From: a phage
Reading direction: 5' to 3' (one strand)
Length of the DNA stretch: 64,000 nt
NCBI GenBank assembly: GCA_026683435.1
Contig: GCA_026683435.1_4866.1
Part shown: piece after piece, positions 18,371-59,406 of the stretch
Numbering within the stretch: the first letter of the stretch is position 1
Layout: each line of letters opens with the position of its first letter
Translations under genes and position numbers: made by a program
The notes under the pieces: model-generated
Databases searched by the model: none
Told to the model about the DNA's origin: nothing
Seen by the model: the letters and a program-made list of their open reading frames with translations, nothing else

Positions 18371-18450
18371 TTAAAACTCCTTAAGATAATGGTCGATTAG
18401 ATAAGAGTTAATGGTTAACTCTCACCTAAGTAATATATATCTGAAAATAA
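18371..18450 (-). repeat. duplicated promoter-leader unit (copy 1 of 2; partner 37126..37205)
   Basis: About 80% identity by eye with small indels; both contain the core motif, a stem-loop (agagttaa...ttaactct) and an AAGGAG SD. Confidence 0.6.
18424..18448 (-). promoter_or_regulatory. conserved quasi-palindromic promoter/operator-like element, copy 1
   Basis: Plus-strand cacctaagtaatatatatctgaaaa; coding-strand core AGATATATATTACTTAGG contains a -10-like TATATT. Confidence 0.5.
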
Positions 18451-18465
18451 TTGTAATCGGACTAG

Positions 18466-18504
18466 ACAAAAAAAGAAGAAACCCTACTCCCGAAGGAGTA
18501 GGGT
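18466..18504 (-). terminator. hairpin terminator after gene 18541..18969
   Basis: ccctactcc-cgaa-ggagtaggg preceded (plus) by aaaaaaagaagaa. Confidence 0.7.
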
Positions 18505-18540
18505 ACTGCTTTATTCGCTACCCTTGGGATAAGCGTCATC

Positions 18541-18969
18541 CTAGTTGATGTGGAGTAGAGTGTCCTTCAACGCCTTCTGCTTTTCGTACGACTGACGACA
18601 CAAGGAAGTCAGCGTCGAATACGCCGTGCCGGTACGCACCGGTAATTCGCCACCCGCTTCGGTGGGTTCTGTACGAACAAAAGACCCTTCTTCAAACGGC
18701 GGCGCTGCGTGTGGGAAGTTCTTTTTCATGTATCGCTTATACCAGCCGGCTACAACACGGATAACTTTTGGCATCTGAGATCGTCGGTCACGTACTTTCT
18801 TCCCGTGCATCTGATTCATCTCGGAAGACATGCATAGCGAGGTGTACTGACTGAATCCGTCACTGACCCACTTACCGTCCTGGACCAGTAATTTCTTACC
18901 AACTGCTACAGCGATTCTCGGAGAGAAAATGACCGCACCATCTTTACGTTTCTTAGGCTTAAGCATCAT
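18541..18969 (-). CDS. hypothetical protein (142 aa), basic N-terminus
   Basis: MMLKPKKRKDG...; N-terminus resembles that of the next gene (MLKPRKQKR). Confidence 0.6.
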   Translation of the reverse strand: MMLKPKKRKDGAVIFSPRIAVAVGKKLLVQDGKWVSDGFSQYTSLCMSSEMNQMHGKKVRDRRSQMPKVIRVVAGWYKRYMKKNFPHAAPPFEEGSFVRTEPTEAGGELPVRTGTAYSTLTSLCRQSYEKQKALKDTLLHIN

Positions 18970-19762
18970 TATCGTCCTTGTATAGGGAGTCGTAAGGGCT
19001 GTTAGTGTTCATGTTAAATTCTTGTTCTACTTCAGGATGTTGTGAAAGGGAATCCAGAAAGATCGGTTGATATCCACCCTCTGTACGTTTCTTTATCATT
19101 TCAAGGAACGACTTTCCATCAGGAACATCAGGTGTTGATACTAACACCGTGTCAGAGACTGTCGGTAAACGCGTGCAGCCTTCAGTGTTCAGCTGTAGTA
19201 CCGCGTCTGGTGCGATGTGTCTGATGTTAGGAAACTTCAACGCGATCTCTTCCATCTTCGCTTTCAATGCATCACCGTTTAGCAGCGGTACAGTCGGCGT
19301 CATATAAGCGAACTCAACATCTCGATCGGCCACATAATCGCGTAAGTGTTTTCGGGCTGCTACTGTAGCAGAAACTTGCTCTTTATTAGCGTTTATGCCG
19401 ATGTCATTAAAGCGTTTTAGTTTGTCTAAGAAAACGCTAATGTTTTCCTTCGGCATAGGGCGTGGGAACTTACGCAGAAAATAAAGTTGTTCGCGGCCAG
19501 GCACCCAGCTGAGTACCCAGCACGCTTTTAGTGTACGGAAGATATCACGATAGGGTTTCTTCTCTTGAAAGAAATCCCCTTTTAACTGGCAACGGTCTTC
19601 AACCATTGCCTGGAGTTGGGTGGCTACGTTGGCCATTGCCGACCAGGTGATAAGACGACTACGGTGTTTACCCACGTAGAGACGTCCACCTGTAACACGA
19701 CGGGACTGTGGATGTACTATTTTGACAAACTGTAATCTTTTCTGTTTGCGTGGTTTTAACAT
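18959..19762 (-). CDS. hypothetical protein (267 aa)
   Basis: Track ORF extends to 19831; first ATG at 19762 (MLKPRKQKRLQ...) with AAGGAG SD. Confidence 0.6.
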   Translation of the reverse strand: MLKPRKQKRLQFVKIVHPQSRRVTGGRLYVGKHRSRLITWSAMANVATQLQAMVEDRCQLKGDFFQEKKPYRDIFRTLKACWVLSWVPGREQLYFLRKFPRPMPKENISVFLDKLKRFNDIGINANKEQVSATVAARKHLRDYVADRDVEFAYMTPTVPLLNGDALKAKMEEIALKFPNIRHIAPDAVLQLNTEGCTRLPTVSDTVLVSTPDVPDGKSFLEMIKKRTEGGYQPIFLDSLSQHPEVEQEFNMNTNSPYDSLYKDDNDA

Positions 19763-19839
19763 TTTAATACTCCTTATGGTCGTAACTAATTTGAAACTGT
19801 TGCTTTTAAGGATTAACGAACAGCCTGCCAACCTCTAAT

Positions 19840-20241
19840 TTACTCATCTTTTACCTCGAAACCGTGACTACGGAAATACTCGATGGCCGCAGAACGTTTA
19901 CCTACACAGGAGAGTTTTTCATAGAGCAACTCAAGGAGTGTTTTTGGTTCCCAACGTTGCTCTATGAAATAGATTAGGGCACCCAGGTTCCGTCCTAACA
20001 TCTTGTCACGCAGATCCGCATCTCGTCGGGCATCCCGTAGCTCATCTTCGAGTTTCCGGTTCTTAGACTGTTCCTCAGAAAGTAGTCGTGTAAGCTTACG
20101 GCGTTCTTCGAAAGATTCATCAAGATTTCTTTTCCACGCTTCTTTCGAAATTTCCAACTCAGTCTTTGATAGGCTGAGTTCCAATTCCAGTATTTCTAAT
20201 TGGCGACGCAACTGTTTTTTCTCCTGAAACAGGCCGAACAT
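19840..20241 (-). CDS. coiled-coil protein (133 aa)
   Basis: Track start 20256 is TTG; ATG at 20241 with AAGGAG SD; charged heptad-like sequence (LEILELELSLSKTELEISKEAWKRNLDESFEERRK). Confidence 0.6.
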   Translation of the reverse strand: MFGLFQEKKQLRRQLEILELELSLSKTELEISKEAWKRNLDESFEERRKLTRLLSEEQSKNRKLEDELRDARRDADLRDKMLGRNLGALIYFIEQRWEPKTLLELLYEKLSCVGKRSAAIEYFRSHGFEVKDE

Positions 20242-20306
20242 GTTTTCTCCTTGCAATAGCTCTATCGATTCTGTTACGAATTTCTGCTAACGTTAACGGT
20301 TCCCAC

Positions 20307-20627
20307 TTAAAATCCATTGCGACCTCCATGTGCGATGTATAACGCACATTTCGCATTGAGTGCTTCGATATTAGCGATAAGTATCATCACCCCGCCGAGT
20401 GTTCGTGGTACGCGAACTGCTTCGTACTCGCGACTTTGTGTACGGACACAATATTCATCGCCCAGGAACGCGATTTCGTAATACTCAGCACGTAACGGTA
20501 CAAATGACTGTAGCAACATATCTGCGGTTTGATAGTCGTCAGTCAGTTTCCCGCCCTCGAGTAAATATTTCTGAATCTCGTGAATAGTCAGTCCCCGTAA
20601 TGAAATAGACACCGGCTTCTCCTTCAT
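20307..20627 (-). CDS. hypothetical protein (106 aa)
   Basis: ORF track; start uncertain (overlaps upstream ORF). Confidence 0.5.
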   Translation of the reverse strand: MKEKPVSISLRGLTIHEIQKYLLEGGKLTDDYQTADMLLQSFVPLRAEYYEIAFLGDEYCVRTQSREYEAVRVPRTLGGVMILIANIEALNAKCALYIAHGGRNGF

Positions 20628-20970
20628 GGTCGATTAATAACAGTTCAGGTGGTACGTCGTAGTCGATGGGTGCGGACTCCTCCATCACGCTATACAATCG
20701 CTGATAGAACTCTCTGGAGGTTTCCAGGTGCCCTCTTGACACGTGTCTGACATGCGGTGTATTAGGATGATAAAACTCGCCGTAGGTTATCGCTAACTCG
20801 ACAAACCATAGACATAGTTCTCTTGGCCCGTATCGGTTATAAAACTTTATCACCCCAACATCAAACATCTTGTTGTAATGCGGTAAATCACGATAACGAA
20901 GTTTTAGTGTACCTACACCGATGCGTTGAAGCTCGATAGAGATAGCTACGTCTATGGTTAACATTATCAA
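20539..20970 (-). CDS. hypothetical protein (143 aa)
   Basis: ORF track; colinear with neighbours. Confidence 0.55.
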   Translation of the reverse strand: MIMLTIDVAISIELQRIGVGTLKLRYRDLPHYNKMFDVGVIKFYNRYGPRELCLWFVELAITYGEFYHPNTPHVRHVSRGHLETSREFYQRLYSVMEESAPIDYDVPPELLLIDHEGEAGVYFITGTDYSRDSEIFTRGRETD

Positions 20971-20987
20971 TTACCCTTATCTACCGA

Positions 20988-21371
20988 TCAGTTAAATCCG
21001 GTATATTCGTTGATGCTACCGTCCTTGATATACACGCCTGGCGTCAGTGCAACTTTACGTGGATCGTTATCAGCACGCTCGCCGTTACACTGAACGTTCC
21101 ACTCGTTGACTAAGCGCTCCATTTCGCGCGATGCATATAGGCGCACGTCTGTAACCAGCTCGCTGGCCTCACCCAGATGCGTTGCGTGAAGCACGCTATT
21201 CTCCAGGCCGTAGAGTTTAGCGAGCAGGATTTTGTTAAGTTCTAACGCTGCTTTTGCAACGAGCGCGTACCCTTGACGTTGTCCATCTATGTCTGCGTTC
21301 AGTAACGTCAGCTGATGATTTTTCATGTGCTCGATAGCCAGTGCTAAATCGGTGTTCGGTGGTGTTTCCAT
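20988..21371 (-). CDS. hypothetical protein (127 aa)
   Basis: ORF track; colinear with neighbours. Confidence 0.6.
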   Translation of the reverse strand: METPPNTDLALAIEHMKNHQLTLLNADIDGQRQGYALVAKAALELNKILLAKLYGLENSVLHATHLGEASELVTDVRLYASREMERLVNEWNVQCNGERADNDPRKVALTPGVYIKDGSINEYTGFN

Positions 21372-21691
21372 TAGTTTTTATCCTCACGTTTACTAAATTC
21401 TTCTAACATCTCGTCGTACGCACTCCTGGTATCTTTTAATCCCTGAACGGCCGCGTCATAGGCACGCCGCGCAGGGGACGTAAGATGGTAGTGCCCAATA
21501 CGTTCGATAATGTCGTGACAGCGACTTATGTGCGTGCAGAGCCTACTCGCATTAACGCCCAGTTCCGCGAGGTCGTGTCTTAACTGCAAGTTATCGGCCT
21601 GTACACGACGGTTAGCGGCAGCTAATTCTCGGTTTTCTTCGTACAGTTGTTTTTGTCGCTTGTTAATCAGCGCCAGTAACCAGTTCAACAT
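21371..21691 (-). CDS. hypothetical protein (106 aa), helical/coiled-coil
   Basis: ORF track; start/stop overlap with neighbours. Confidence 0.6.
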   Translation of the reverse strand: MLNWLLALINKRQKQLYEENRELAAANRRVQADNLQLRHDLAELGVNASRLCTHISRCHDIIERIGHYHLTSPARRAYDAAVQGLKDTRSAYDEMLEEFSKREDKN

Positions 21692-21701
21692 CCTGTCCCC
21701 C

Positions 21702-22220
21702 TTAACGCTTCAGATAGATAACGTTATGGTTTTCGTACTTCGCGTCTACCCAGGAAAATTCCCAGTAATGTCTCGGACGATCGGCGATTTTCATGTCCAG
21801 TTCCAGTATACCGTCTAAAGGTACCTGTCTGAGCACCTCTACGATGCTCTGCAGCTCGTTACGAGGCCGGTCGTGGATTAGCTCCAGATAACGCTCCAAA
21901 CGCGCAGGCGTCGCTACAGTGCGAATATGAGTACGTTTATCATCGTCGTGCAGGTAAAGGAAGTTTGGTGTGCGTGGAACGTACCAGTGCCAGGTACCGA
22001 TATACGGACCGGGCTGATAATCAGACAGTTGTTTGATTGCATTTAATACCGACGAACAACGGAAATACCAGATGTCCCATTCATCACGAGGGAACAGTTC
22101 CGCGACTTTCACTTTCAATGGGTCGATACTAATATCCCCCGCAGCCAATACTTCCGGGGCAACGCCCGATTCTAAAACGTTACGTTCCCGTTTGGTATAC
22201 AGGTTCATGATAATATTCAC
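21702..22220 (-). CDS. hypothetical protein (172 aa)
   Basis: ORF track. Confidence 0.6.
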   Translation of the reverse strand: MNIIMNLYTKRERNVLESGVAPEVLAAGDISIDPLKVKVAELFPRDEWDIWYFRCSSVLNAIKQLSDYQPGPYIGTWHWYVPRTPNFLYLHDDDKRTHIRTVATPARLERYLELIHDRPRNELQSIVEVLRQVPLDGILELDMKIADRPRHYWEFSWVDAKYENHNVIYLKR

Positions 22221-22247
22221 TTAATGCTCCTTAGGATTTAAAATAGC

Positions 22248-22583
22248 TTACTGTTTAGCCCAGTATTCGGCTAACGTTTGGTCACCTTTACCGATGCGAG
22301 CATGAATGCCCATTTTACGCAGCCGGTACAGTTCAAGGGACATGGTGTTTAGTTTGATAAGATTTACGTCCGTTGGGCTCTTAAGGCAATCGTCTAATAC
22401 ATTAACGAATTTATCCAGCGCCTCTTGCGGAACTTTGCCTTCTGGGTAGTCGTACAGTGTTATCACTTTAAAGGTGTAACCGTCGATATTCGACAACTGT
22501 TTTACAGCTTCACCGATATCACGATTTATCATTGGTGTCCTATTGAGACGCATTGGTCTGGCAACACGGATTACTCTACCCAT
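22248..22583 (-). CDS. hypothetical protein (111 aa)
   Basis: ORF track. Confidence 0.6.
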   Translation of the reverse strand: MGRVIRVARPMRLNRTPMINRDIGEAVKQLSNIDGYTFKVITLYDYPEGKVPQEALDKFVNVLDDCLKSPTDVNLIKLNTMSLELYRLRKMGIHARIGKGDQTLAEYWAKQ

Positions 22584-22908
22584 TGACCACCCCCAAATCG
22601 CTTACAGTGGATGCTGCGGGGACATCCAGGTTATTCATCCATAACGACAGCTTGTTCATCTTCGCCGCGGTTTCAGGACTAGGGTTATTGCGCAAGTCAC
22701 TTAAAGCCATCGCAAACTGGGTTGCCAGGATTTGACTGCCGTAGAAAGCACTGCGGCTTACTGGTAACGCTTCGAAGCGTGCATCGAAATTGTTTGCTTG
22801 GTTAAGTTCTTTAACAGTGCTCAGAATGGCTTCCTGCATTCGAAGTTCACCGTCGCCTTCAAGGTCAGTTGCCTGACGCAATACCGCAATGTGATAGACT
22901 TTAGACAT
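22576..22908 (-). CDS. hypothetical protein (110 aa)
   Basis: ATG at 22908 with AAGGAG SD; downstream of promoter-like element copy 2. Confidence 0.65.
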   Translation of the reverse strand: MSKVYHIAVLRQATDLEGDGELRMQEAILSTVKELNQANNFDARFEALPVSRSAFYGSQILATQFAMALSDLRNNPSPETAAKMNKLSLWMNNLDVPAASTVSDLGVVNG

Positions 22909-22967
22909 TTTAAGTGCTCCTTAATACATGACATAAGCTCTGATTGAAACGTAAATTTCAGAGGTTC

Positions 22968-22992
22968 ACTGAGATAATATCTATCTGAAATA
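22968..22992 (-). promoter_or_regulatory. promoter/operator-like element, copy 2
   Basis: Plus cactgagataatatctatctgaaat; leader stem ctctga...tcagag follows. Confidence 0.5.
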
Positions 22993-23031
22993 AAATAAAG
23001 GTTAGGTGGTACCTCGTAGAGGTACCACCTA
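22991..23031 (-). terminator. hairpin terminator after gene 23037..25196
   Basis: aggtggtacctc-gta-gaggtaccacct (12-bp stem) followed on minus strand by a T-rich run. Confidence 0.7.
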
Positions 23032-23036
23032 GACAC

Positions 23037-25196: not shown

Positions 25197-25747
25197 TATA
25201 CATCGTCTCCGTAGGTTAACACTGCATCATCACCGATGCATAAAACAGTTTCTTCATCCAGACTTGCCACAGCTTCTTTTTCATTAAACGCCGTGAATGT
25301 AAAGGTAGCCGTCCAAGCCGGTGAATCGTCACTCATCGCTGCAATCAATGGCTCGTTTGTTGGTGTAATAACCCCTGTCGAGATGTCTTCACGTGACAAG
25401 TTTAAACCGCATAACTGGTTTACAACTGTCGCTAAATCAGCATAGGTGTCGCCGGGAGCTACAGTAACCAGTATCGGTCCTTGCGGGTCGATAATCTTAT
25501 TAGCGACTAGACGGTCGTAATAGACGGTAACCTTCTTGCCGTTAGGTTTACGTGCTTTCGCAATGTACGCTTGCGAGGTACGGGCACTTTCAACACCTAA
25601 GTCGATTGGCCCTACTCCGCTTATCACAATCTCGTCAGGCGATAATGACAAGCCGTTATCGTGATTAATCAACGCCACGACAAGCGCTTTCGACGAGAGT
25701 GTTAGGTCTGGCTGATAGCGGTCTGCCATTAACGCCTCCAGAAACAA
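25196..25747 (-). CDS. stand-alone N-module protein (183 aa)
   Basis: ...KVTVYYDRLVANKII...QLCGLNLSREDIS matches both N-module blocks; followed directly (overlapping start/stop) by the 719-aa gene. Confidence 0.6.
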   Translation of the reverse strand: MFLEALMADRYQPDLTLSSKALVVALINHDNGLSLSPDEIVISGVGPIDLGVESARTSQAYIAKARKPNGKKVTVYYDRLVANKIIDPQGPILVTVAPGDTYADLATVVNQLCGLNLSREDISTGVITPTNEPLIAAMSDDSPAWTATFTFTAFNEKEAVASLDEETVLCIGDDAVLTYGDDV

Positions 25748-25784
25748 AAAAATAAGCTACCACACATATGATCGTGTGGTAGCC
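25744..25784 (-). terminator. hairpin terminator after gene 25798..26193
   Basis: gctaccacac...gtgtggtagc with T-run on minus strand. Confidence 0.6.
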
Positions 25785-25797
25785 TACTCGTACGCTG

Positions 25798-26193: not shown

Positions 26194-26204
26194 GAGGACT
26201 CTCC

Positions 26205-30199: not shown

Positions 30200-30544
30200 T
30201 TAGAAGTGCTTACGGAAGATAGACTCGTTGCAGGTCTCCCCACGCGTCTTACCACGAGACACGGTGGTTTTGTTTGCAGCAGTTTTACCATCACCCACAG
30301 CGGTCTTCGCCAGCGGCAGACGTTCGCTTGCACCACGGAATGCGTAGTAGCGAATGTTTTCTGGGGCAGCGACATCGCCTTCGAACTGGAAGGTGATACC
30401 TTTACGCAGTGACTTGTAGGTGTAGCCTTTCAAGTCCAGCGTCTGCGGCAGTGCATTTTCATCGGCACCATGTTGGTAGTGGATAACCGTACCTACACGT
30501 TTGATGACGATATACATCTGCGCTGCTTTTGGTGCTTTGGCCAT
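30200..30544 (-). CDS. small, apparently highly expressed protein (114 aa), N-terminus MAKAPK
   Basis: ATG at 30544 with AAGGAG SD; strongly biased codon choice (ctg, cgt, ggt, aaa); own promoter-like element and terminator. Confidence 0.65.
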   Translation of the reverse strand: MAKAPKAAQMYIVIKRVGTVIHYQHGADENALPQTLDLKGYTYKSLRKGITFQFEGDVAAPENIRYYAFRGASERLPLAKTAVGDGKTAANKTTVSRGKTRGETCNESIFRKHF

Positions 30545-30592
30545 TCTCGATACTCCTTATAGATTAAAATGTGAGGGAGAAAACAATCTTCT

Positions 30593-30618
30593 CCCCTAGA
30601 TAACATCTATCTGAAAAG
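30593..30618 (-). promoter_or_regulatory. promoter/operator-like element, copy 3
   Basis: Plus cccctagataacatctatctgaaaag; leader stem gggagaa...ttctccc. Confidence 0.5.
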
Positions 30619-30625
30619 TAATGCG

Positions 30626-30952
30626 TTAGAGGCGGATTTGCAGCTGGATAGGATCGCTGTTTTCTCTGTGGGTATCAGGCCAGCAGAAAATACGATGATG
30701 TACGCGACTTATCTCAACCACTAACCCGATAGCGGGTACAAACAGGAACACGTTCAGCGGCATGGTGAAGTCAATCTTACTTTCAAGATTGGTGAAGTGG
30801 ACTTCTTTGTTATCCACCCCAATCACCTGTGCGTACACCTGCCGTGCTTCCGGCGGACACCCTAACGACTTCTGAAACGCAGACTGCATCCGAATGAGTA
30901 GCTCACTCGGCGACAGTTCATCGCGGACATCAATGAGGGATGGGCTCGACAT
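30626..30952 (-). CDS. hypothetical protein (108 aa)
   Basis: ORF track. Confidence 0.55.
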   Translation of the reverse strand: MSSPSLIDVRDELSPSELLIRMQSAFQKSLGCPPEARQVYAQVIGVDNKEVHFTNLESKIDFTMPLNVFLFVPAIGLVVEISRVHHRIFCWPDTHRENSDPIQLQIRL

Positions 30953-34591: not shown

Positions 34592-35620
34592 TCATCCTCT
34601 CATGCCAGATTGAAACATATCACTGATAGTCAGCCTGGTTGTAGTCTCCACCGGAATGCTAGGTTCTTCTTTCAGCACTCGATCGGCGCGGTTCCCATTC
34701 ACCCGTTTCCAGCTAATAAGTTCAGGATCGCGTTTCAACGTTAGTGTACGCAGTACCTGCTTGCAACGTAAGATGTTACCGTACAGGTGATTTGCTGGAT
34801 TATTATCAGCAGCTGTTTCAATATAGACTTGGTCGGAATGACGTTGTGCGAAATCGAACAGCGCGCCCATTAGCCGGCGACCAATGCCACGTTTACGATG
34901 CGTAGGTGCAACCGTCAAGCCAGAGAGTTCAACGACGCCTGGCGCGACCAAACGCATTTGGGCAATGCCGACGATATCACGACCGTCTCGCCAAATCGCG
35001 GTTTCCACATTAGCGTGCTGAATTCTTGCTATCACGGTTTCTGCCAAAGGACCAATGTGTGTATAATAGCCACGAATGTCATACCCCAGTTCCTCGCAAA
35101 TTGCACCACTGACCAGATTCAGGATAACGTCTTTGTCGTCCTTGGAAAGTTCTGCGTATGCGTCACCAGAAATAATCTTGATTTCCGATGCAGTTATTAC
35201 TTTATCAAACAGTTTAGAATGACATGCCCAGACGATATCTGAAAGAACAAACCCTTTTTCGACCAGTTTTTGTTCAACATCGCCAGTAGGTGCCGGGCAC
35301 GACATATATTCGAAGCCTGTGTGGTCGAGCACAAGGGCTAAACCAACTTTATCGAATGCCCCAGGTACAAACTCCTCAAAATAGTGACAGGTTAGTGTAG
35401 GGTCACCGTGTCGATAGGTGGCCACTAAATAACCCTCCCAGGTTTCTCTATTCCGTACCACGTAAACAGAATAAGTCTCGTCCTTTAGAAACTCTTTTAG
35501 GCGGCGTGCTCGTACAGTATCGCTACCGACGTTATTTTGGAACTCGGCAGAGCGAATGCTGCTGCGGAACAATTTAGCCACAGTTTTCATTGTAATGCCC
35601 TCAAAAGGTAATGCTGTCAC
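34592..35620 (-). CDS. two-domain protein with C-terminal GNAT acetyltransferase domain
   Basis: GNAT motif A LTVAPTHRKRGIGRRLMGALFDFAQ; start may be GTG at 35620 or ATG at 35590. Confidence 0.65.
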   Translation of the reverse strand: MTALPFEGITMKTVAKLFRSSIRSAEFQNNVGSDTVRARRLKEFLKDETYSVYVVRNRETWEGYLVATYRHGDPTLTCHYFEEFVPGAFDKVGLALVLDHTGFEYMSCPAPTGDVEQKLVEKGFVLSDIVWACHSKLFDKVITASEIKIISGDAYAELSKDDKDVILNLVSGAICEELGYDIRGYYTHIGPLAETVIARIQHANVETAIWRDGRDIVGIAQMRLVAPGVVELSGLTVAPTHRKRGIGRRLMGALFDFAQRHSDQVYIETAADNNPANHLYGNILRCKQVLRTLTLKRDPELISWKRVNGNRADRVLKEEPSIPVETTTRLTISDMFQSGMRG

Positions 35621-35640
35621 AACATGAGGATAATGCGTAA

Positions 35641-35679: not shown

Positions 35680-36336
35680 TTACAGTTCAGGTTTGGAGAC
35701 AAGCGCCGTCCAAGTTTCAGAATGTTTGATACTGACGTGCGCCAAGCGATTCACCATGAACGCAAATTTGTCCATATGCTTCTGCACTTCGTTATCAGTC
35801 AGATTACCAGCGATAACTTTACCGTCTTTGGTCAGCACGATATAACCGTGGTTGTTGTCTACAGTAGTAAACGCCACGTCAATCGTAACTGGGTACAGTT
35901 TCACCAGCGTCGGCAGAATATGACCAACACGATCCGCCATACCCGCAAGCTGACCACAAAGGTCGGCTTTATCCTGCATGAACAAACGCAACATCGCTAC
36001 TGCAAACACCGGATAGATGTTTTCGATTTGCGTGTCGTAACGAGACAGACCGATAACTTCATCACCACGGGTTAGCACCATGTTGTTCAGATGCGCGCCT
36101 TTATAGATGGTAAAGCGTACGTCGCTACCAAGGTTAACCGCAACGATTTCCTGACCAAGGTCAATCGGATATTCGCGCTCGATGTGAATTGTTTTCAGAC
36201 GTTCACTGATTGGTACAATTACATCCGGTTTAGGAATGGTAGGTGGGCGTGGAGATTCGGTAGTACGCGTTTTTGTGGCTTTAATCGCGTTGCTTGCCGT
36301 TGAATCTTTTGCTACAGTTTTAGGGGCCTTCGCCAT
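35680..36336 (-). CDS. hypothetical protein (218 aa), N-terminus MAKAPK
   Basis: Track ORF extends to 36414; ATG at 36336 with AAGGAG SD. Confidence 0.6.
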   Translation of the reverse strand: MAKAPKTVAKDSTASNAIKATKTRTTESPRPPTIPKPDVIVPISERLKTIHIEREYPIDLGQEIVAVNLGSDVRFTIYKGAHLNNMVLTRGDEVIGLSRYDTQIENIYPVFAVAMLRLFMQDKADLCGQLAGMADRVGHILPTLVKLYPVTIDVAFTTVDNNHGYIVLTKDGKVIAGNLTDNEVQKHMDKFAFMVNRLAHVSIKHSETWTALVSKPEL

Positions 36337-36759: not shown

Positions 36760-37125
36760 CTACATTACTGCAGAAGGTTTACGTGCCATGACTTTGAGTC
36801 CTGTTTCTCGTACCCGGATAGGACAGTTATTCATGTAGTCGGTGCAGGATTCAATTTTGAAGCTATGGCGGCATTTGCCGTTGATGGAACGGTAAACGAT
36901 TTCGTAATTCAGGCGCAGTGTATCGGCAACACGCATCAGAGTTTCGATAGTCACGGCTTTCTCGCGTTCATTTTTAATCGCAGAGATTTGTGACGGTGAG
37001 CAGCCTACCAACAATGCAATGTCTTTCTGCGTAACATCCTTCGCAGTGACACGAGTAATAATGTAAGAGAGACGAACCAGAAATGCTTTCTTTGCCAACA
37101 CAACGGTTTGATGTTTAAAACGCAT
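36760..37125 (-). CDS. XRE-type helix-turn-helix DNA-binding protein
   Basis: TQKDIALLVGCSPSQISAIKNEREKAVTIETLMRVADTL fits the Cro/C1 HTH pattern; ATG at 37125 with AAGGAG SD, directly downstream of element copy 4. Confidence 0.7.
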   Translation of the reverse strand: MRFKHQTVVLAKKAFLVRLSYIITRVTAKDVTQKDIALLVGCSPSQISAIKNEREKAVTIETLMRVADTLRLNYEIVYRSINGKCRHSFKIESCTDYMNNCPIRVRETGLKVMARKPSAVM

Positions 37126-37205
37126 TAGAATACTCCTTTAGATTAATAGTCGATTAGAGAGTTTAGTAGTAACTCTCACCTAAGTAATATATATCTGAAA
37201 TTTAG
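37126..37205 (-). repeat. duplicated promoter-leader unit (copy 2 of 2; partner 18371..18450)
   Basis: Shares core motif, stem-loop (gagagtt...aactctc) and SD with the 18.4-kb copy. Confidence 0.6.
37177..37201 (-). promoter_or_regulatory. promoter/operator-like element, copy 4
   Basis: Plus cacctaagtaatatatatctgaaa (identical core to copy 1). Confidence 0.5.
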
Positions 37206-37243
37206 TGGAGTGGAAGCAAAAAGCATAAGACTGTTCTGATCTG

Positions 37244-37912: not shown

Positions 37913-37973
37913 TTTATTCTTCCCCAAAAGTTTAATTAATTGTAGTGGTGTCACAATATAGCGAGCATACGTA

Positions 37974-38009
37974 AAGAAAAAAAATAATAGGCACTCCGAA
38001 GAGTGCCTA
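37974..38009 (-). terminator. hairpin terminator after gene 38016..38780
   Basis: aggcactc-cgaa-gagtgcct preceded (plus) by an A-run. Confidence 0.7.
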
Positions 38010-38780: not shown

Positions 38781-38876
38781 TTTGTTTACTCGCTTTTAAG
38801 TTTAAGTTGGTGAGTTTTAACCGACTCACAACGGCTTCTAGCATATGCTAAGGATGAAACGTAATTTTTGCACGTC

Positions 38877-38904
38877 TCCCTAAGATAACATCTATCCAAA
38901 AAAG
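38877..38904 (-). promoter_or_regulatory. promoter/operator-like element, copy 5
   Basis: Plus tccctaagataacatctatccaaaaaag. Confidence 0.45.
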
Positions 38905-38936
38905 AATAGAGTCGACCCACTCCCGAAGGAGTGGGT
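38898..38936 (-). terminator. hairpin terminator after gene 38942..39541
   Basis: cccactcc-cgaa-ggagtggg preceded (plus) by aaaaaagaatag. Confidence 0.7.
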
Positions 38937-46246: not shown

Positions 46247-46295
46247 TTTTATATTCCTTTTGGGCCGTGCTTACACAGTAATTTACGTAGACGTA

Positions 46296-46339
46296 ATAAA
46301 AAAATAAGAAGCCTCTTCTCCAGGAGGAGAAGAGGGCTT
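46296..46339 (-). terminator. hairpin terminator after gene 46342..46914
   Basis: agcctcttctcc-agga-ggagaagagggct (12-bp stem) preceded (plus) by aaaaaaataagaa. Confidence 0.7.
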
Positions 46340-53921: not shown

Positions 53922-53922
53922 A

Positions 53923-53986
53923 CAAAAAAAAGAAAAAGAAATAAGGTTTACCTCTCCCTTCGGGGAGAGGTACCTTTTCTTTTTTA
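53923..53986. terminator. bidirectional hairpin terminator between convergent genes
   Basis: acctctccc-ttcg-gggagaggt flanked by an A-run upstream and ttttcttttttaat downstream. Confidence 0.75.
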
Positions 53987-54286: not shown

Positions 54287-54320
54287 GCTCGAACCTCATT
54301 ATAGAGCTACTCTATAATAA

Positions 54321-54605
54321 TTACGCCAGCGTAATGTGGTACTTATCAATGTCAGGGAATCGCTCTTTGATCATCCCGCAGAACATATCCAACACCGGAT
54401 CAGTTTTTGCGGCCTTCTCCATCTCAGGAAAAACACTACGCAGTGGCACGCCAGGGTTCTGCCCTGCCGTTTTCTTAAGCTCTTCTTTATACTTTGCCAA
54501 CAGAGATTTAACCCCTGTTGTCTTCGGGAAGCCACACCCTGCGACCCCATCGTTTTCAAAATAGATTACTGCTTCAACACTAGACATTTTAATACTCCTT
54601 TTCAT
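54321..54605 (-). CDS. hypothetical protein (94 aa)
   Basis: ORF track. Confidence 0.6.
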   Translation of the reverse strand: MKRSIKMSSVEAVIYFENDGVAGCGFPKTTGVKSLLAKYKEELKKTAGQNPGVPLRSVFPEMEKAAKTDPVLDMFCGMIKERFPDIDKYHITLA

Positions 54606-54610
54606 GATAG

Positions 54611-54646
54611 AATAAAAAATAATAATAGGAGACCCGAAGGTCTCCG
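54611..54646 (-). terminator. hairpin terminator after gene 54653..56323
   Basis: ggagacc-cgaa-ggtctcc preceded (plus) by aaaaaataataatag. Confidence 0.65.
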
Positions 54647-54652
54647 TATTAC

Positions 54653-56323
54653 TTAGTACAACACTGGTGCAGTTTTCTCACCATTGCTCAGAAGCAGGTA
54701 GGTGCGCTGCGGCAGCTGCATTAACACAATTGCATGTGGCACGTTTTCCTGTACTGCTTCGTAGATAGACACAACCGGGTCTGCGGTATTGCCCAGAGAC
54801 GCTACCGTAACTACGTCGTGTTTATCAACAGAATGGTACATGCCTGGAATCACGATGGTGAACTGGCTCTGAATCAGGTTAACCACCTTGCCAGAATCGC
54901 TCAGCTTGATAGTCAGTTTGCGCAGAGAGTTCGCTACCATCAGGAACAGGTCACGGAACCAGTCTTCATATTCACTTACGCCGTTGTCGCCAGCGGTTGC
55001 AGTGAACAGATCTTTTACGAAGAAATCAATATCGCTGATCTTCCGTTCGAAATCGATAGCTTTGAACTTCGGCACATCTTTACCGCGCTTAGTGCCCAGC
55101 GACAGCGCGTTGTGTACCAGGAAAGTGATATTCGCCAGGTACGCATTAGCAAAGCGAGAAATCTCACTGATAACCACTTCTGCTTCACTGCTGTTCGCAA
55201 TCGCATATTCGTGCAGTTCTTTCGTGTTCTTACGCAGTTCATCGATCGTACGCTTCACCTTAGCCATGATAGTTTCAACATCTTCTACCAACGCCAAGTT
55301 GTCGAGATCGGATTTCAGTGCGTCGTGCTTAGCAACAAATTGTTTCATACGCTCGCACATATCAGTGTTAACACCGACCAGATACGCGCGATAACTATCC
55401 CGTGCACGCACAATCAGGTCAGCCCCGTCGTAGAAAACAACCTCTTCATTACCGTTAAAGATATCTTGCAACGGTGTAGCCCAATCACGCGTTTCCGCGT
55501 AAACAGATTGCTTAATGCGACTGTTAGCTTCCTTCGCTGGAATCGACATTTTAAGCTCGGGGGTTTTCAGCTCGTGAAGTGCGTAGTCTTCCATCAAATC
55601 AATCTCCTGCAGAATGTTGTTAATTGGGCCATTGATAGTGTCCTTCTCGGTTTCTTCTGTTGCGCCGAGTGGGGAAAGCACTGGGTTATTAACTGTAGCA
55701 TTAGACACCGGCATTGGTTGTACAGGCACCGGTGCTGGTTCAGGCCGGGGCTGTTGTGCTGGGGCTACTTGCGCCGGTTGCGGGTTCAGAATAGGATCAT
55801 TGACCAGGTTAAGACCTTCACCGCCAGCAATCACGGTTAGTGCCGCATCTGTGTTACCAATCTTAACACCACCAGATGGCGCAGAAGACATGGTCAGGCC
55901 ATCAGTAACACGAACACCGCCAGAACTGTTACCGCCCAGTAACCCACCTGCGTTGCTACCACCACCTAAACCACCACTGCCACCCAAACCGCCAGACTGC
56001 TGAGAACGAATTTCGGCAAGAATCTTACCGACTTGTTCCCAAGCATTAACCAGTTTGGTGTGACGATCGTCGTTGTACGCGTCGCCTGCGTTATGCACCT
56101 GCTGATAGGCAGCTGCTTTATACGCATCGACCGCATATGCGATAACCTGTGCTTCACTACCCCCTTTGGATGCTGCCCATGCCGCAACATACGTCGCAAT
56201 CTTTAACGCCTGATCTGGCGGAATGCTACGGCTGCGCATCACATTATTCAGCTGCGACAGTACCGCGTCCTGATCGAGGTGTTTAACGATGACGTTTTTG
56301 ATTTGTTCAACAGTAATGCTCAT
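54653..56323 (-). CDS. structural-type protein (556 aa) with Gly-rich linker
   Basis: QQSGGLGGSGGLGGGSNAGGLLGGNSSGG linker, then Pro/Ala/Gln-rich stretch. Confidence 0.7.
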   Translation of the reverse strand: MSITVEQIKNVIVKHLDQDAVLSQLNNVMRSRSIPPDQALKIATYVAAWAASKGGSEAQVIAYAVDAYKAAAYQQVHNAGDAYNDDRHTKLVNAWEQVGKILAEIRSQQSGGLGGSGGLGGGSNAGGLLGGNSSGGVRVTDGLTMSSAPSGGVKIGNTDAALTVIAGGEGLNLVNDPILNPQPAQVAPAQQPRPEPAPVPVQPMPVSNATVNNPVLSPLGATEETEKDTINGPINNILQEIDLMEDYALHELKTPELKMSIPAKEANSRIKQSVYAETRDWATPLQDIFNGNEEVVFYDGADLIVRARDSYRAYLVGVNTDMCERMKQFVAKHDALKSDLDNLALVEDVETIMAKVKRTIDELRKNTKELHEYAIANSSEAEVVISEISRFANAYLANITFLVHNALSLGTKRGKDVPKFKAIDFERKISDIDFFVKDLFTATAGDNGVSEYEDWFRDLFLMVANSLRKLTIKLSDSGKVVNLIQSQFTIVIPGMYHSVDKHDVVTVASLGNTADPVVSIYEAVQENVPHAIVLMQLPQRTYLLLSNGEKTAPVLY

Positions 56324-56354
56324 TGTAAATAATACTCCTTAAGAGATGTAATAA

Positions 56355-58133
56355 TTAGCGGCCGATTTTAGCAATGTCTTCTTCGGTCGGTCTGATGTAC
56401 GGGTCCAGTTTAGGATTCCGCATCATTACCAAACTTGGGTTGGTCTTCATGTACGGGTTGAGGATGTTTGCCTTAAACGGTGCCGACTTAGGAATATAGT
56501 AGACGTTACCGCATTCCAGATGCGACGCAGATGCGTGCTTAGTACGGTCGTTCAAGTTAACGGTCTTGCCTCCTTTCTTCGAACGCTTAGCATCGGTTTC
56601 GGTTTGACCGATGGCGTGCGTAGACACTGCCAATACCATTGATTCTGTAGAGGCATTGAAGAAACTGATACCGCCGTTGCTCGTAATGGTGCGCATCACC
56701 AGATTGAGCACGATCTGTTTGTTCAGTGCGTCTCGAATAGACTTCGCCGCTGTCTCTGGAGTCCGATGTTCCAGCTGCCCCAGTTTCCAACGTATTTTCG
56801 AGATCGTTGTGGTAAAGCCGCGTTGACCCAACAGTAAATAATCGGTTACCGTGAGACGTTTTCCGTACATAGACGGAATATCATCTTGTTTGGTAAGACG
56901 AGTACGCACCATCAGCTGCGTGGTGTACCAGAGGAAATCAAACATATCCAAATCATCAGGGATGGACGGATCGTTTGCCATCAGCTCACCACGGAAGGTG
57001 CTGTTGACATAGCGTTCGCATTCCTGGAAGTGGCTGTCCATACTGCGACTCAGTTCGATATCCGAGGGCTTCAGTCCGCGAATACTACGACCCAACACTT
57101 CGCGCCAGGAGGCTGCAGAGTTGAGGTTCGCAATATCTTCGTCCATTGCCATTTCGTTAATCTGTGTAAACAGCCCCGGCAGTGTTGGTGCACGACCGTT
57201 CTTACTGTTCTGTTTACCTGCGTAGTAGTGCGCTGCTTTGAAGAACGCAGCAGTCGCTACCAGCAACAGATGTTCATTCTGATCCCAACGCCCTGCATCG
57301 GTGTTAGGCATATCTTCACGTTTAACCAACAGTACGTACTGGATGGTCTTCGCGAGTTGTGGCTCACCGGACTGAATCACCACATACTTCGTTAAGTCCA
57401 CATCACGTACTTTAATCGCTGGCCAAATCGCCACATCAACACCCGCATAACGCTTCACAGCTTGTTTAAAGCCGTAGCGCCCGAAGAGCCAATACATCAA
57501 CGGCTTCTCATCGGTGTCGTGTCCAATCTGTCCGGTTGAGACAAACAGATTCGATGTACCTGGCAAGAACAGCTGCTCAGGGCGACCATTCACCAGAATC
57601 TTCGTTGGTTTCTTACAGAACTTGATAGACACCTTGCGGGTGAAGTCAAAGTTAATAAAGATACCACCGTGCTCACGACAAATACCAGGTTGGTGGATTA
57701 CAGGTGCTACGTGGTACGTTGTACCGTAGTAGTTCATTAAGCCGCCACGACGAATAAACGGCAGGCTCATTGGTCGTTGCACCGGGCGAGGATCGCCTGG
57801 AACTCGGAACGAGGCCATTACCATATACGTGTCAGTGGATGAGATGTTAATAATTGACCGGCCACGATTGTTTCGTGAATTGTTATCCGACTTCGATAAC
57901 TTAAAGATAAAAGCTTCAAACGGGGACATCTGACGGCAGCCTAACACCGTTAACCCTTCTGGTAATTTCGGGTTATCGATTTCATCATACGTCAACTCAC
58001 GACGTAGAATGGTTGCCACACGATCATGTATCCCGTCTTTAGCTTGTGTGTACCCAACTCCTTCTGCAATTGCACGATTAAAAGGCACTATTTCGCCTGC
58101 CTCTTTAATCTTCCTAATCGCATCTTTAAACAC
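56355..58133 (-). CDS. large hypothetical protein (592 aa)
   Basis: ORF track; no recognisable motif. Confidence 0.7.
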   Translation of the reverse strand: MFKDAIRKIKEAGEIVPFNRAIAEGVGYTQAKDGIHDRVATILRRELTYDEIDNPKLPEGLTVLGCRQMSPFEAFIFKLSKSDNNSRNNRGRSIINISSTDTYMVMASFRVPGDPRPVQRPMSLPFIRRGGLMNYYGTTYHVAPVIHQPGICREHGGIFINFDFTRKVSIKFCKKPTKILVNGRPEQLFLPGTSNLFVSTGQIGHDTDEKPLMYWLFGRYGFKQAVKRYAGVDVAIWPAIKVRDVDLTKYVVIQSGEPQLAKTIQYVLLVKREDMPNTDAGRWDQNEHLLLVATAAFFKAAHYYAGKQNSKNGRAPTLPGLFTQINEMAMDEDIANLNSAASWREVLGRSIRGLKPSDIELSRSMDSHFQECERYVNSTFRGELMANDPSIPDDLDMFDFLWYTTQLMVRTRLTKQDDIPSMYGKRLTVTDYLLLGQRGFTTTISKIRWKLGQLEHRTPETAAKSIRDALNKQIVLNLVMRTITSNGGISFFNASTESMVLAVSTHAIGQTETDAKRSKKGGKTVNLNDRTKHASASHLECGNVYYIPKSAPFKANILNPYMKTNPSLVMMRNPKLDPYIRPTEEDIAKIGR

Positions 58134-58144
58134 ACCGGCCTCCC

Positions 58145-59149
58145 TCAGAGAATCATCCCAACGAGTGCTACCCCTGCAGCCAAATACGCGGGAATGGATT
58201 TCAAGAACTCCGAGCTATCTTTTCGCTGATAAGCTCGGGACTCGTATTGGTCTTTACGAACATCGGAACGCAACTTAAGCTCATTCGTCTGGATTGTGTT
58301 AAGGGTGTTAATCCTCTCCTTCTCTAGCGCCAGATTATTAAGTTGTGTACGATAATCGAGGTCTTGCCGATTCTTTTTCTCATCGAGATCTTGCAACTTG
58401 GCCTGATACGTGGCTTCCAGCTTCGCACGAACATCTCGCAACTCTGGAATGTTATCGAGCCACCGATAACGCCTCGCTTCATCTTCAGATGCAAACGCCC
58501 GGAACGGGGACATCGGGTCATCGAAAGAGTACATTATCATCTTACCCCCTTCGACGCACTCCGCACCACCGATTACCATGTAAATACCCTCGTCGTAATA
58601 CTTCGATCGAATCGGTTCGACTTCCAACATCGTTGTATAGAACCTCAGCCACTTTAAAGGTGCTGGGTCTTCGTACTTCTGTACAACTACCACGCCCAAG
58701 GCAAATTCTTTACGATCCCCTCCTGGCTTACCAATGACCTCAGAATCGAGTTTTACTGGTTGGGTAGAGAAAGCCATTCCTAGCTTCTTCAACACCACCA
58801 AGTCGCCTCGCATTAACGCACCGATATCATCAACTACATACATCAGCGTTGTTTCGCCGTTCGTAGTTAATTCCTTACATATCTGCGCATACTGCTTTGG
58901 CGAATGTGCGTCGCGCAAACCAGATAGGTTAGCACCGTTCGCAAACACCGTATAGGTCACGTAAATAACAATCCCAAATTCCGCCGCTGTGGTGGACGAC
59001 GGGGCTAAAACAAAATGCCCGCCACTGAGTTCAGTGACGTATATGGGAAACCCGGTATTATTTTCGTACGTGATAGTCTTCGACACGGCACCACGGTGCA
59101 TGGGCCGCTGGGTTAGCGTTGGCTGAACGTCTAAATCATAACGGTTCAT
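58145..59149 (-). CDS. coiled-coil protein with C-terminal transmembrane anchor (334 aa)
   Basis: Track start 59173 is TTG; ATG at 59149 (MNRYDL...); C-terminal IPAYLAAGVALVGMIL. Confidence 0.65.
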   Translation of the reverse strand: MNRYDLDVQPTLTQRPMHRGAVSKTITYENNTGFPIYVTELSGGHFVLAPSSTTAAEFGIVIYVTYTVFANGANLSGLRDAHSPKQYAQICKELTTNGETTLMYVVDDIGALMRGDLVVLKKLGMAFSTQPVKLDSEVIGKPGGDRKEFALGVVVVQKYEDPAPLKWLRFYTTMLEVEPIRSKYYDEGIYMVIGGAECVEGGKMIMYSFDDPMSPFRAFASEDEARRYRWLDNIPELRDVRAKLEATYQAKLQDLDEKKNRQDLDYRTQLNNLALEKERINTLNTIQTNELKLRSDVRKDQYESRAYQRKDSSEFLKSIPAYLAAGVALVGMIL

Positions 59150-59183
59150 TGAACATCCCAGTAATAATACCAAAAGAATTATT

Positions 59184-59209
59184 CACGTAGATAATATCTA
59201 TCTCAGATT
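59184..59209 (-). promoter_or_regulatory. promoter/operator-like element, copy 6
   Basis: Plus cacgtagataatatctatctcagatt, about 40 nt upstream of ATG 59149. Confidence 0.5.
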
Positions 59210-59262
59210 ACTTTGGGCACGGGTTCATACCCAGTGCCCTTAACGTAAAAAACTTTAGGGTA

Positions 59263-59346
59263 TCAAACGTGGTGACCGTTCGCCATAGAACCGCGCCCAT
59301 CAAACATCGGTGCAACTAGTCTTGATCTCTCTAAATTGACTTCCAT
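59263..59346 (-). CDS. possible 27-codon small ORF between two promoter-like elements
   Basis: ATG at 59346 with AAGGAG SD; MEVNLERSRLVAPMFDGRGSMANGHHV. Confidence 0.3.
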   Translation of the reverse strand: MEVNLERSRLVAPMFDGRGSMANGHHV

Positions 59347-59380
59347 TACTGTCTCCTTAAGTTAAAACCGAATGACTCTC

Positions 59381-59406
59381 TCCCTAAGATAATATCTATC
59401 TATAAA
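59381..59406 (-). promoter_or_regulatory. promoter/operator-like element, copy 7
   Basis: Plus tccctaagataatatctatctataaa, just downstream (minus sense) of the terminator. Confidence 0.5.

Follow-up and report, generated by a model that had tools for sequence, protein, structure and literature searches.

The seven copies of a directional sequence element found in the window (the whole 64,000-nt stretch of phage DNA analyzed here) are very likely early promoters of a jumbo phage that resembles SPN3US and is related to phiKZ, and they are probably read by a virion RNA polymerase (vRNAP), which the phage injects along with its DNA. The finding is correct but ordinary, as phiKZ-type phages are already known to have elements of this kind. 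At 98% identity, the window matches SPN3US-like jumbo phages, whose taxonomy (genus Seoulvirus, family Chimalliviridae) places them among the relatives of phiKZ. Phages of this type have a virion-packaged multisubunit RNAP: the SPN3US virion carries a packaged five-subunit vRNAP (PMC5694885), and split RNAP β/β′ genes are listed in the SPN3US annotation. The vRNAP genes lie outside the window.

All seven copies proposed by the first-pass annotation exist. There are exactly seven in the window, all intergenic and all on the minus (coding) strand (Table 1). A search of the window for AGATAGATRTTATCT with at most two mismatches gave five matches, all on the minus strand, where 0.18 were expected; the copies at 18424 and 37177 represent the variant AGATATATATTACTT. 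A 43-nt position weight matrix (PWM) was trained on the sites of the SPN3US genome and applied to the window, in which the seven sites scored 30.3–49.9 bits. The next-best match in the window (12.7 bits) is a reverse-complement echo of one palindromic copy, and none of 20 dinucleotide shuffles gave a score above 16.6 bits. The positions first given for the copies lie at most 1 nt from the invariant G that closes each element on its 3′ side, and the 15-bp core is found 5–19 nt upstream of this G. The distance to the start codon had been put at 40–90 nt, which is roughly right: it measures 35–98 nt from the G and 47–110 nt from the center of the core. A stem-loop opens five of the seven leaders at +1, and AAGGAG is found in front of five start codons.

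Table 1. Positions of the probable promoter copies and associated features in the window
Feature	Coordinates	Strand	Invariant G (predicted +1)	PWM score (bits)	Remarks
Copy 1	59373..59415	(-)	59382	48.6	Class A, AGATAGATATTATCT; drives the 27-aa remnant ORF
Copy 2	59175..59217	(-)	59184	45.2	Class A; heads an operon with an nvRNAP subunit gene
Copy 3	38869..38911	(-)	38878	37.2	Class A, GGATAGATGTTATCT; single-gene unit ending at terminator 38009-37988
Copy 4	37168..37210	(-)	37177	49.9	Class B, TATATTAC; heads the HTH-gene unit, which ends at terminator 35677-35652
Copy 5	30584..30626	(-)	30593	30.3	Class A, GATGTTAT; single-gene unit ending at terminator 30196-30167
Copy 6	22958..23000	(-)	22967	40.1	Class A; about ten small genes, ending at terminator 18504-18481
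Copy 7	18414..18456	(-)	18423	47.7	Class B, TATATTAC; unit ends at terminator 17611-17596
Major-capsid-gene terminator (intrinsic)	59426..59451	(-)			11-bp stem and T run; insulates copy 1
27-aa ORF	59263..59346	(-)			Between the tandem copies; remnant of a 232-aa gene intact in phage SPFM4
nvRNAP subunit gene (homologue of phiKZ gp123)	56355..58133	(-)			Second gene behind copy 2; phmmer vs PDB: 7ogp_E PHIKZ123, E=3e-20
Bidirectional terminator	53949..53972	(-)			End of the 59184 early operon; terminator scan
Leader box AATCGACTATTA	37144..37155	(-)			18 nt upstream of ATG
Cro/C1-type HTH protein gene	36760..37125	(-)			First gene behind copy 4; Pfam HTH_3, E=2e-7
Leader box AATCGACCATTA	18387..18398	(-)			
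TTACG-N14-TATG	59226..59248	(-)			Candidate middle/late promoter; terminal G 42 nt upstream of the early +1 at 59184
TTACG-N14-TATG	38842..38864	(-)			Within the leader of copy 3
TTACG-N14-TATG	22932..22954	(-)			Within the leader of copy 6
TTACG-N14-TGTG	46274..46296	(-)			After terminator 46335-46312
TTACG-N14-TGTG	37952..37974	(-)			After terminator 38009-37988, upstream of the thymidylate kinase gene
TTACG-N14-TGTG	35618..35640	(-)			After terminator 35677-35652, upstream of the GNAT gene

The element spans about 40 nt and is directional, running from T-32 and A-29 through TTTC and AGATA(G/T)ATATTA(T/C)CT to six further bases and the invariant G. The -30 block (T-32, the invariant A-29, and A-28) is A-rich in the SPN3US sites, and the -20 block consists of TTTC (-23 to -20) and AGATA. 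The -10 block reads A-13, T-12, A, T-10, T, A-8, and T or C at -7, with the invariant G six bases on. A-29, A-13, T-12, T-10, A-8, and G+1 are present in 23/23 SPN3US sites. The sites share an AT-rich core of some 10 nt (TATATTAC or ATATTAT), highly conserved, and additional blocks near -20 (T-rich) and -30. The form TATATTAC was found in two of the seven window sites, as first reported, and both belong to class B (37177 and 18423); in SPN3US it occurs in 7/23. Two thirds of the sites have G at -14 together with T at -7 (AGATAGATATTATCT), a combination that creates the quasi-palindrome. Class B sites share their whole homologous 5′ UTR and so are not independent observations. Hairpins start at +1 to +3 in 10 of the 23 predicted SPN3US transcripts, compared with 2.8 ± 1.6 in shuffles and 1–5 at shifted offsets.

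The complete SPN3US genome contains 23 sites at ≥32 bits, and its next-best match scores 12.7. All 23 lie on the plus (main coding) strand. Coding sequence takes up 93.6% of this genome, and 22 of the sites are intergenic (P about 1e-25); the remaining site (25212) is inside a gene. CR5 has 19 sites, again all on the plus strand, some of them ahead of its genes for the nonvirion polymerase (nvRNAP). Every one of the 23 SPN3US, 19 CR5, and 7 window sites points to the downstream gene. Sites occupy syntenic positions in CR5, Huxley, phiEaH2, and Wellington, where the surrounding intergenic DNA is not alignable. The distribution agrees with that of phiKZ-like early promoters, some 20–40 co-oriented copies per genome, placed ahead of non-structural early operons that include the nvRNAP genes.

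The phiKZ early consensus given in the first-pass annotation, TATATTAC, is correct (PMC7058600, Table 2). phiKZ has 28–32 early sites with this consensus, attributed to the virion RNAP and found in front of early operons, those with the nvRNAP genes among them (PMC8244752, PMC11512511, PMC13282480), and the early promoters of both phiKZ and 201phi2-1 are conserved at -10, -20, and -30 (PMC11512511, PMC8244752). The present element resembles those of phiKZ in its AT-rich core near -10, its conservation at -20 and -30, and its abundance (about 20–30 copies per genome), but differs in that most sites carry AGATAGATATTATCT (G at -14, T at -7) rather than TATATTAC. In contrast to 201phi2-1, where several nvRNAP genes are not so placed (PMC11512511), all five are within two genes of a site. 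The consensus agrees with the published early-promoter strings of OBP (BSHAWWWWWTTTYARRYAKATATTATYWWADTG) at 33/33 positions and of N1M2 (TBYAWWWWWTTTCARRYAKATATTATYWAAGTGWA) at 34/35 (PMC7058600). These promoters, from a Pseudomonas and a Klebsiella phage, respectively, are bioinformatic predictions only, and the host, genus, and gene sets differ. Early promoters of the Bacillus phage AR9 were mapped by dRNA-seq as ATATATTAT-N6-G, also written AAATATATATTAT-(6N)-G, with G as +1 (PMC5312081). The 38 mapped AR9 promoters have the same bases at -19, -17 to -15, and -13 to -7 as well as G at +1, so that the register is shared, although AR9 has uracil-containing DNA, falls outside the Chimalliviridae, and carries A at -18 in place of G. 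The relatedness of the phages, the match to OBP and N1M2, and the AR9 register uphold the original main reading, a phage promoter related to the phiKZ early consensus.

Many phages use strong sigma-70 early promoters, and the -10 block looks like a sigma-70 -10 element: a TATTAT-like hexamer is located at -12 to -7 with the G 7 nt downstream, A-11 and T-7 are both kept in 12/23 sites, and a TTnnAA-like block is present upstream. Recognition by the Salmonella/E. coli holoenzyme with TATTAT as the -10 hexamer is nevertheless very unlikely. In none of the seven sites did a sigma-70 scan align its -10 hexamer with the TATTAT/TATTAC core; the few overlapping minus-strand matches (59206-59178, over a site, and 22934-22907, over a leader) are in another register, and sigma-70-like sites overall fall below shuffle expectation. 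The upstream block would leave a spacer of 15 bp, and no TTGACA-like -35 hexamer was found 16–18 bp upstream of a TATAAT-like core. A-11 or T-7, the most critical bases for sigma-70, is missing from 11/23 sites (G at -11 or C at -7), whereas bases outside the hexamer, at -13 and -29, are invariant. The same motif is found in phages of Pseudomonas, Klebsiella, Erwinia, and Bacillus (PMC7058600, PMC5312081), and early transcription in phiKZ and AR9 is rifampicin-resistant and independent of protein synthesis (PMC7598289, PMC13282480, PMC5312081).

Homologues of the phiKZ nvRNAP subunits were identified with the chains of PDB 7OGP (PHIKZ055, 068, 071, 074, and 123) as references. All five rank first or second among the genes that follow a site (hypergeometric P=5.6e-5), and the five vRNAP genes rank 9th to 24th. 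None of the 40 genes at ranks 1 and 2 has a structural annotation, compared with 50/224 elsewhere (P=1.3e-4). The promoter units are short, terminator-ended, and made up of non-structural genes. As the phage encodes two polymerases, the element could in principle be a promoter of the nvRNAP and hence middle or late rather than early. We consider this highly improbable, because an enzyme with all five of its subunit genes behind the element cannot make its own first copy and because structural genes are absent downstream. Furthermore, the phiKZ middle and late promoters that have been defined by experiment carry other motifs, TACT at -22 and TATG where transcription starts (PMC8244752, PMC7598289), and a separate motif of this kind is present in the SPN3US-like genome.

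The copies were initially described as usually following a terminator. Terminator-like hairpins flagged by the scan lie directly upstream of four (59451-59426, 37282-37259, 23031-23003, and 18504-18481) and a fifth is visible upstream of the copy at 38877; site 30593 adjoins the preceding gene without a terminator, and at 59184 the hairpin has no T run. Copy 1 comes directly after the terminator of the major capsid gene, a position at which it is conserved in four other genera as well; the terminator itself is kept across genera with compensatory changes. The gene behind 30593 is an allele with 35% identity among relatives. The AATCGACTATTA leader box also occurs 16–19 nt upstream of the start codons of eight SPN3US genes.

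The arms AGATA...TATCT were originally presented as inverted repeats. They are perfect in 8/23 SPN3US sites and imperfect in the other 15, and 18 of the 19 CR5 sites are not perfect; the dyad results incidentally from the -20 and -10 blocks and is not required. An inverted repeat could extrude as a DNA hairpin for recognition by a virion polymerase, as in phage N4, which likewise injects its polymerase, and class A copies could form a 5-bp stem with a 5-nt loop. This fold is marginal (-1.4 to -1.5 kcal/mol), class B folds at 0 kcal/mol, and the dyad is imperfect in most sites; neither class forms a stable DNA hairpin at the promoter. The multisubunit vRNAP of jumbo phages is, moreover, unrelated to the N4 polymerase (PMC7598289), and an N4-type promoter can be practically dismissed.

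The dyad was also considered as an operator, in which AGATA-N5-TATCT would be bound by the dimeric HTH protein to repress or activate the downstream genes, including its own. The HTH gene is directly behind a copy, the core is a 5+5 dyad in the eight SPN3US sites, and CR5, which has no HTH homologue, has perfect dyads in only 1/19. As the primary function this alternative, raised by the first-pass annotation, is unsupported and seems very doubtful. The invariant bases A-29, A-13, T-12, T-10, A-8, and G+1 are asymmetric about the dyad center, and each site in SPN3US, CR5, and the window is oriented towards the downstream gene. The imperfect dyads include all seven class B sites, among them the one before the HTH gene itself, and dyad symmetry is not what the sites conserve. 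Nor does the element co-occur with the regulator gene across genomes: CR5 keeps its 19 elements in the absence of an HTH homologue (tblastn best E=2.9), with the left "arm" retained and no complementary right arm, and OBP shares the consensus (PMC7058600), yet no HTH homologue was found in the Cronobacter or Pseudomonas phage records searched. It is conceivable, though improbable, that in Seoulvirus-type phages the perfect dyad of class A was co-opted as an operator of the early HTH protein, which might then tune or shut off the vRNAP at class A promoters, the ones that head nvRNAP operons among them, while class B (TATATTAC) would escape. The one hint of this is the difference in perfect dyads between SPN3US, with the HTH gene, and CR5, without it. 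Such co-option, if true, would add a repressor layer to early control in a phage family whose regulation has been ascribed to two polymerases and compartmentalization.

For the vRNAP promoters that we favor, we infer by homology both the start site at the invariant G and the early timing. Judging from the family, the capsid-packaged multisubunit vRNAP, injected with the DNA, would bind the element and initiate at the invariant G, requiring neither a host sigma factor nor new protein synthesis; no in vitro reconstitution of vRNAP promoter recognition has been reported for phiKZ-like phages (PMC5312081). The units carry the genes for all nvRNAP subunits, and it is the nvRNAP that later transcribes the middle and late genes. 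Upstream terminators shield the units from transcription of neighboring structural genes and, speculatively, the +1 hairpin of about half of the predicted transcripts may stabilize their 5′ ends.

A gene deletion accounts for the tandem pair at 59381/59184. The N terminus of the 27-aa ORF (MEVNLERSRLVAPMFDGRG) aligns with MVINLEKSRLVAPMFDGRG of SPFM4, in which the 232-aa gene is present; in the window this gene is deleted. As in the "promoter early stem-loop" (PeSL) cassettes of T4-type phages, a terminator stem-loop and an early promoter flank small, variable early genes, and relatives differ in the genes that they have between conserved promoter copies, as with the 232-aa gene and the allele behind 30593. 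The T4 promoters are read by the host polymerase.

A second bipartite motif, TTACG-N14-TRTG, was also found. It may represent a candidate class of middle promoter, and its positions in the window are given in Table 1.

Between positions 36000 and 60000 the window shares 98% identity with Escherichia phage vB_EcoM_EC001 and 97% with Salmonella phage SPN3US (genus Seoulvirus, family Chimalliviridae), members of a group of jumbo phages related to phiKZ that have two multisubunit RNA polymerases each. Genome-wide counts are based on the complete SPN3US genome and its annotation. The first-pass annotation had described seven copies of a quasi-palindromic promoter- or operator-like element in the window, and all seven were recovered by mismatch search and by scanning with a position weight matrix (PWM, width 43 nt), which was also applied to SPN3US and relatives. 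With at most two mismatches allowed, AGATAGATRTTATCT has five occurrences, all of them on the minus strand (0.18 expected), and the two other sites are the variant AGATATATATTACTT. The PWM returned exactly seven sites at 30–50 bits; the next-best match (12.7 bits) is one of the palindromic copies read as its reverse complement, and the maximum in dinucleotide shuffles of the window was 16.6 bits. The coordinates originally assigned to the copies are the 3' ends of the elements and lie no more than 1 nt from an invariant G, from which positions are counted here (+1). Start codons follow this G by 35–98 nt, in rough agreement with the 40–90 nt first proposed. The copies were said usually to come right after a terminator; a scan finds one at 4/7, and a further terminator-like hairpin was seen by eye upstream of 38877. 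A leader stem-loop, as described earlier, opens five of the seven leaders, and two copies do carry TATATTAC.

The PWM identified 23 sites in SPN3US at 32–49 bits, with none further above 12.7. All are on the plus strand, which holds 231/264 genes, and 22 have intergenic cores, where coding sequence takes up 93.6% of the genome (P about 1e-25). Together they define an asymmetric element that far exceeds the 15-bp dyad in length. The -30 block consists of T-32, an invariant A-29 and an A-rich stretch; the -20 block comprises TTTC at -23 to -20 and AGATA at -19 to -15. Position -14 is G or T, A-13, T-12, T-10 and A-8 are invariant, -7 is T or C, and the invariant G lies six bases 3' of ATTAY. Positions -14 and -7 covary (G/T, n=15; T/C, n=6; mixed, n=2; Fisher P=5e-4), which defines class A (G-14/T-7) and class B, the TATATTAC-bearing variant (T-14/C-7). 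Distinct functional classes were considered, but syntenic sites change class between genera, so that A and B are probably variants of the promoter that can stand in for one another and that spread along with their leaders; the covariation probably reflects shared ancestry of a promoter-plus-leader cassette. One 36.9-bit copy (SPN3US 25212–25254, outside the window) lies within the PHIKZ068-like coding region, 261 nt upstream of the next gene, and may be an internal early promoter.

Very probably the element is an early promoter, and one of an already known kind. TATATTAC, given in the first-pass annotation as the early-promoter consensus of phiKZ-like jumbo phages, is indeed listed for phiKZ (PMC7058600, Table 2). 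The same table lists predicted early promoters of OBP and N1M2, with which the SPN3US consensus agrees at 33/33 and 34/35 positions, respectively; the N1M2 paper was the sole match when the full-text literature was searched for the motif strings. The AR9 paper gives 38 full-length early-promoter sequences mapped by dRNA-seq. When the SPN3US invariant G is set as +1, the AR9 promoters have identical bases at -19, -17, -16, -15 and -13 to -7, and G is the mapped start in 35/38. This shared register is the strongest support available for taking the invariant G as +1. In phiKZ and 201phi2-1, early promoters are described as having conservation at -10, -20 and -30 and a stretch rich in T upstream of -19 (PMC11512511, PMC8244752), and this -10/-20/-30 architecture is that of the SPN3US-type element. 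According to a review, bioinformatics can locate an early-promoter motif in every jumbo phage that encodes an RNAP, and the motif is assigned to the vRNAP, the polymerase packaged in the virion and injected (PMC7598289). By homology, the vRNAP would recognize the SPN3US-type element, and transcripts would start at the invariant G early in infection. The consensus matches, the register and the gene context support the main reading put forward initially, a phage promoter of phiKZ early type. Elements of this class were described before, with consensi for OBP and N1M2 that scarcely differ from the one in SPN3US, and the finding therefore brings nothing biologically new in kind.

The dyad had alternatively been proposed as an operator for the protein encoded at 36760–37125 (minus), the first gene behind the 37177 copy. 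This is confirmed as a Cro/C1-type HTH protein, but the invariant bases of the element are asymmetric, every site is oriented and the dyad is usually imperfect, with perfect 5-bp arms at 8/23 SPN3US sites and at none of the seven class B sites. Furthermore, CR5 keeps the element (perfect dyad in 1/19) without an HTH homologue (best E=2.9). The operator proposal is not supported as the primary function, and it is improbable that the perfect dyads serve secondarily as operators in this lineage. Resemblance of the -10 block to TATAAT could indicate a sigma-70 promoter, but a sigma-70 scan of the window put a -10 hexamer on the core of 0/7 sites, the few minus-strand matches overlapping a site or leader are in another register, and A-11 or T-7 is absent in 11/23 SPN3US sites; this reading was rejected. 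Over window 17001–64000, sigma-70-like matches fell below shuffles (18 vs 24.4; 20 vs 27.9; 6 vs 8.0). An N4-type hairpin promoter was also rejected, the DNA fold being negligible (at best -1.4 kcal/mol) and lacking at class B sites. A promoter for a T7-like single-subunit RNAP, to whose +1 region in T7 the TAGGGAGA end bears a resemblance, was discarded: the motif is one of the phiKZ family, and no T7-like RNAP is annotated in SPN3US.

In phiKZ, 28 early promoters are fired by the vRNAP, leading to expression of the subunits of the nvRNAP, the second, non-virion RNA polymerase (PMC13282480). Behind the 59184 site, the second gene (window ORF 56355–58133) matches the PHIKZ123 subunit in the solved nvRNAP structure (E=3e-20), and the SPN3US homologues of PHIKZ055, 068, 071 and 074 each come first or second after a site (P=5.6e-5 for all five nvRNAP homologues at rank 1–2). 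The five vRNAP genes of SPN3US rank 9th to 24th. Structural annotation is found for 0/40 genes at rank 1–2 vs 50/224 others (P=1.3e-4). That the element is a promoter for the nvRNAP is excluded logically, because the nvRNAP genes themselves depend on it. The nvRNAP genes of 201phi2-1 are reported to be less tidily placed, whereas in the SPN3US lineage every subunit lies directly behind an early promoter. In the window the sites head units that run to a terminator, and early cassettes are therefore interspersed between structural genes. Terminator-like hairpins in window 17001–64000 exceed shuffles (34 vs 19.5; 24 vs 17.7; 12 vs 7.2), many with TTCG loops. A PDB sequence search, made to see whether the gene behind the tandem SPN3US sites 15600/15693 encodes the nucleus-shell protein, gave no match. 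For SPN3US-like jumbo phages of Salmonella and E. coli, the sites provide a clean map of early units (window, 7; SPN3US genome, 23) with predicted +1s, which is useful for annotation, phage engineering and the design of in vitro vRNAP assays.

Table. Coordinates of early sites (PWM sites, given as the invariant G, the predicted +1), the units they head, second-motif matches and leader boxes.
Feature	Sequence	Position	Terminator ending unit	Strand
Early site	window	59382		minus
Early site	window	59184	53972-53949	minus
Early site	window	38878	38009-37988	minus
Early site	window	37177	35677-35652	minus
Early site	window	30593	30196-30167	minus
Early site	window	22967	18504-18481	minus
Early site	window	18423	17611-17596	minus
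Second motif	window	59226-59248		minus
Second motif	window	46274-46296		minus
Second motif	window	38842-38864		minus
Second motif	window	37952-37974		minus
Second motif	window	35618-35640		minus
Second motif	window	22932-22954		minus
Leader box AATCGACYATTA	window	37144-37155		minus
Leader box AATCGACYATTA	window	18387-18398		minus
Leader box AATCGACYATTA	SPN3US	57146
Leader box AATCGACYATTA	SPN3US	65455
Leader box AATCGACYATTA	SPN3US	94280
Leader box AATCGACYATTA	SPN3US	114030
Leader box AATCGACYATTA	SPN3US	167592
Leader box AATCGACYATTA	SPN3US	223318
Leader box AATCGACYATTA	SPN3US	224197

PWM scans located coding-strand sites at syntenic places in CR5, Huxley, phiEaH2 and Wellington, from four other genera; these places include the region after the major capsid gene and that ahead of the nvRNAP operon. 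In an alignment of the post-capsid intergenic region, the terminator and the motif alone are preserved, the former with compensatory changes and the latter with its +1 G kept. In the complete CR5 genome the count is 19, every site being on the plus strand, and sites again precede the nvRNAP genes.

Hairpins of at least 5 bp begin at +1 to +3 in 10/23 predicted SPN3US transcripts (shuffles, 2.8 ± 1.6; shifted windows, 1–5). The leader stem-loop is therefore confirmed and tied to the predicted start. Class B sites have their entire 5' UTR in common, including the box AATCGACYATTA 16–19 nt upstream of ATG, which is possibly a translation or RNA-processing signal. The box stands immediately 5' of the AAGGAG Shine-Dalgarno sequence and is found too between genes within early operons; phiEaH2 carries the variant ATTCGACCATTA. 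An Rfam search of the window returned no family. In phage SPFM4 the first promoter of the tandem pair drives an intact 232-aa gene between the two copies. The window lacks ~600 bp here (59203–59387) and retains a 27-aa N-terminal remnant ORF (59263–59346); because SPFM4 has the intact gene and the window a remnant, the 59381/59184 pair is the product of a deletion. The protein encoded behind 30593 (30200–30544, minus) shares only 35% identity with the SPN3US counterpart; elsewhere the genomes are 97–98% identical. Divergence sets in immediately past the promoter core, suggesting that cassettes are exchanged at promoter boundaries.

At three early sites of the window, the leader or upstream region contains TTACG-N14-TATG, a motif separate from the early element. 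SPN3US contains 26 exact matches to TTACG-N14-T[AG]TG (22 on the plus strand, 4 on the minus strand), and other spacers from 8 to 20 give 0–3 per strand. Nineteen matches are intergenic (P=8e-18). In those that immediately precede a gene, the final G is 24–77 nt upstream of the start codon. The genes behind them belong to nucleotide and DNA metabolism, among them genes for thymidylate kinase, GNAT, SMC-like and exoribonuclease proteins. Where upstream regions lack the early motif, k-mer enrichment yielded terminator and Shine-Dalgarno features and TTTTACG, and nothing else. The spacer test gave no clear signal in CR5 and the 40-kb loci of three Erwinia phages. In phiKZ, TACT is reported near -22 for middle promoters and T-3 A T G+1 for late ones (PMC8244752, PMC7598289), and the second motif unites these features. 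It is a candidate nvRNAP promoter class, perhaps middle. A 2020 review states that middle-promoter prediction from sequence fails for RNAP-encoding jumbo phages; so sharply spaced a motif could let sequence predict middle promoters in the SPN3US lineage. Its pairing with 3/7 window early sites suggests dual promoters there.
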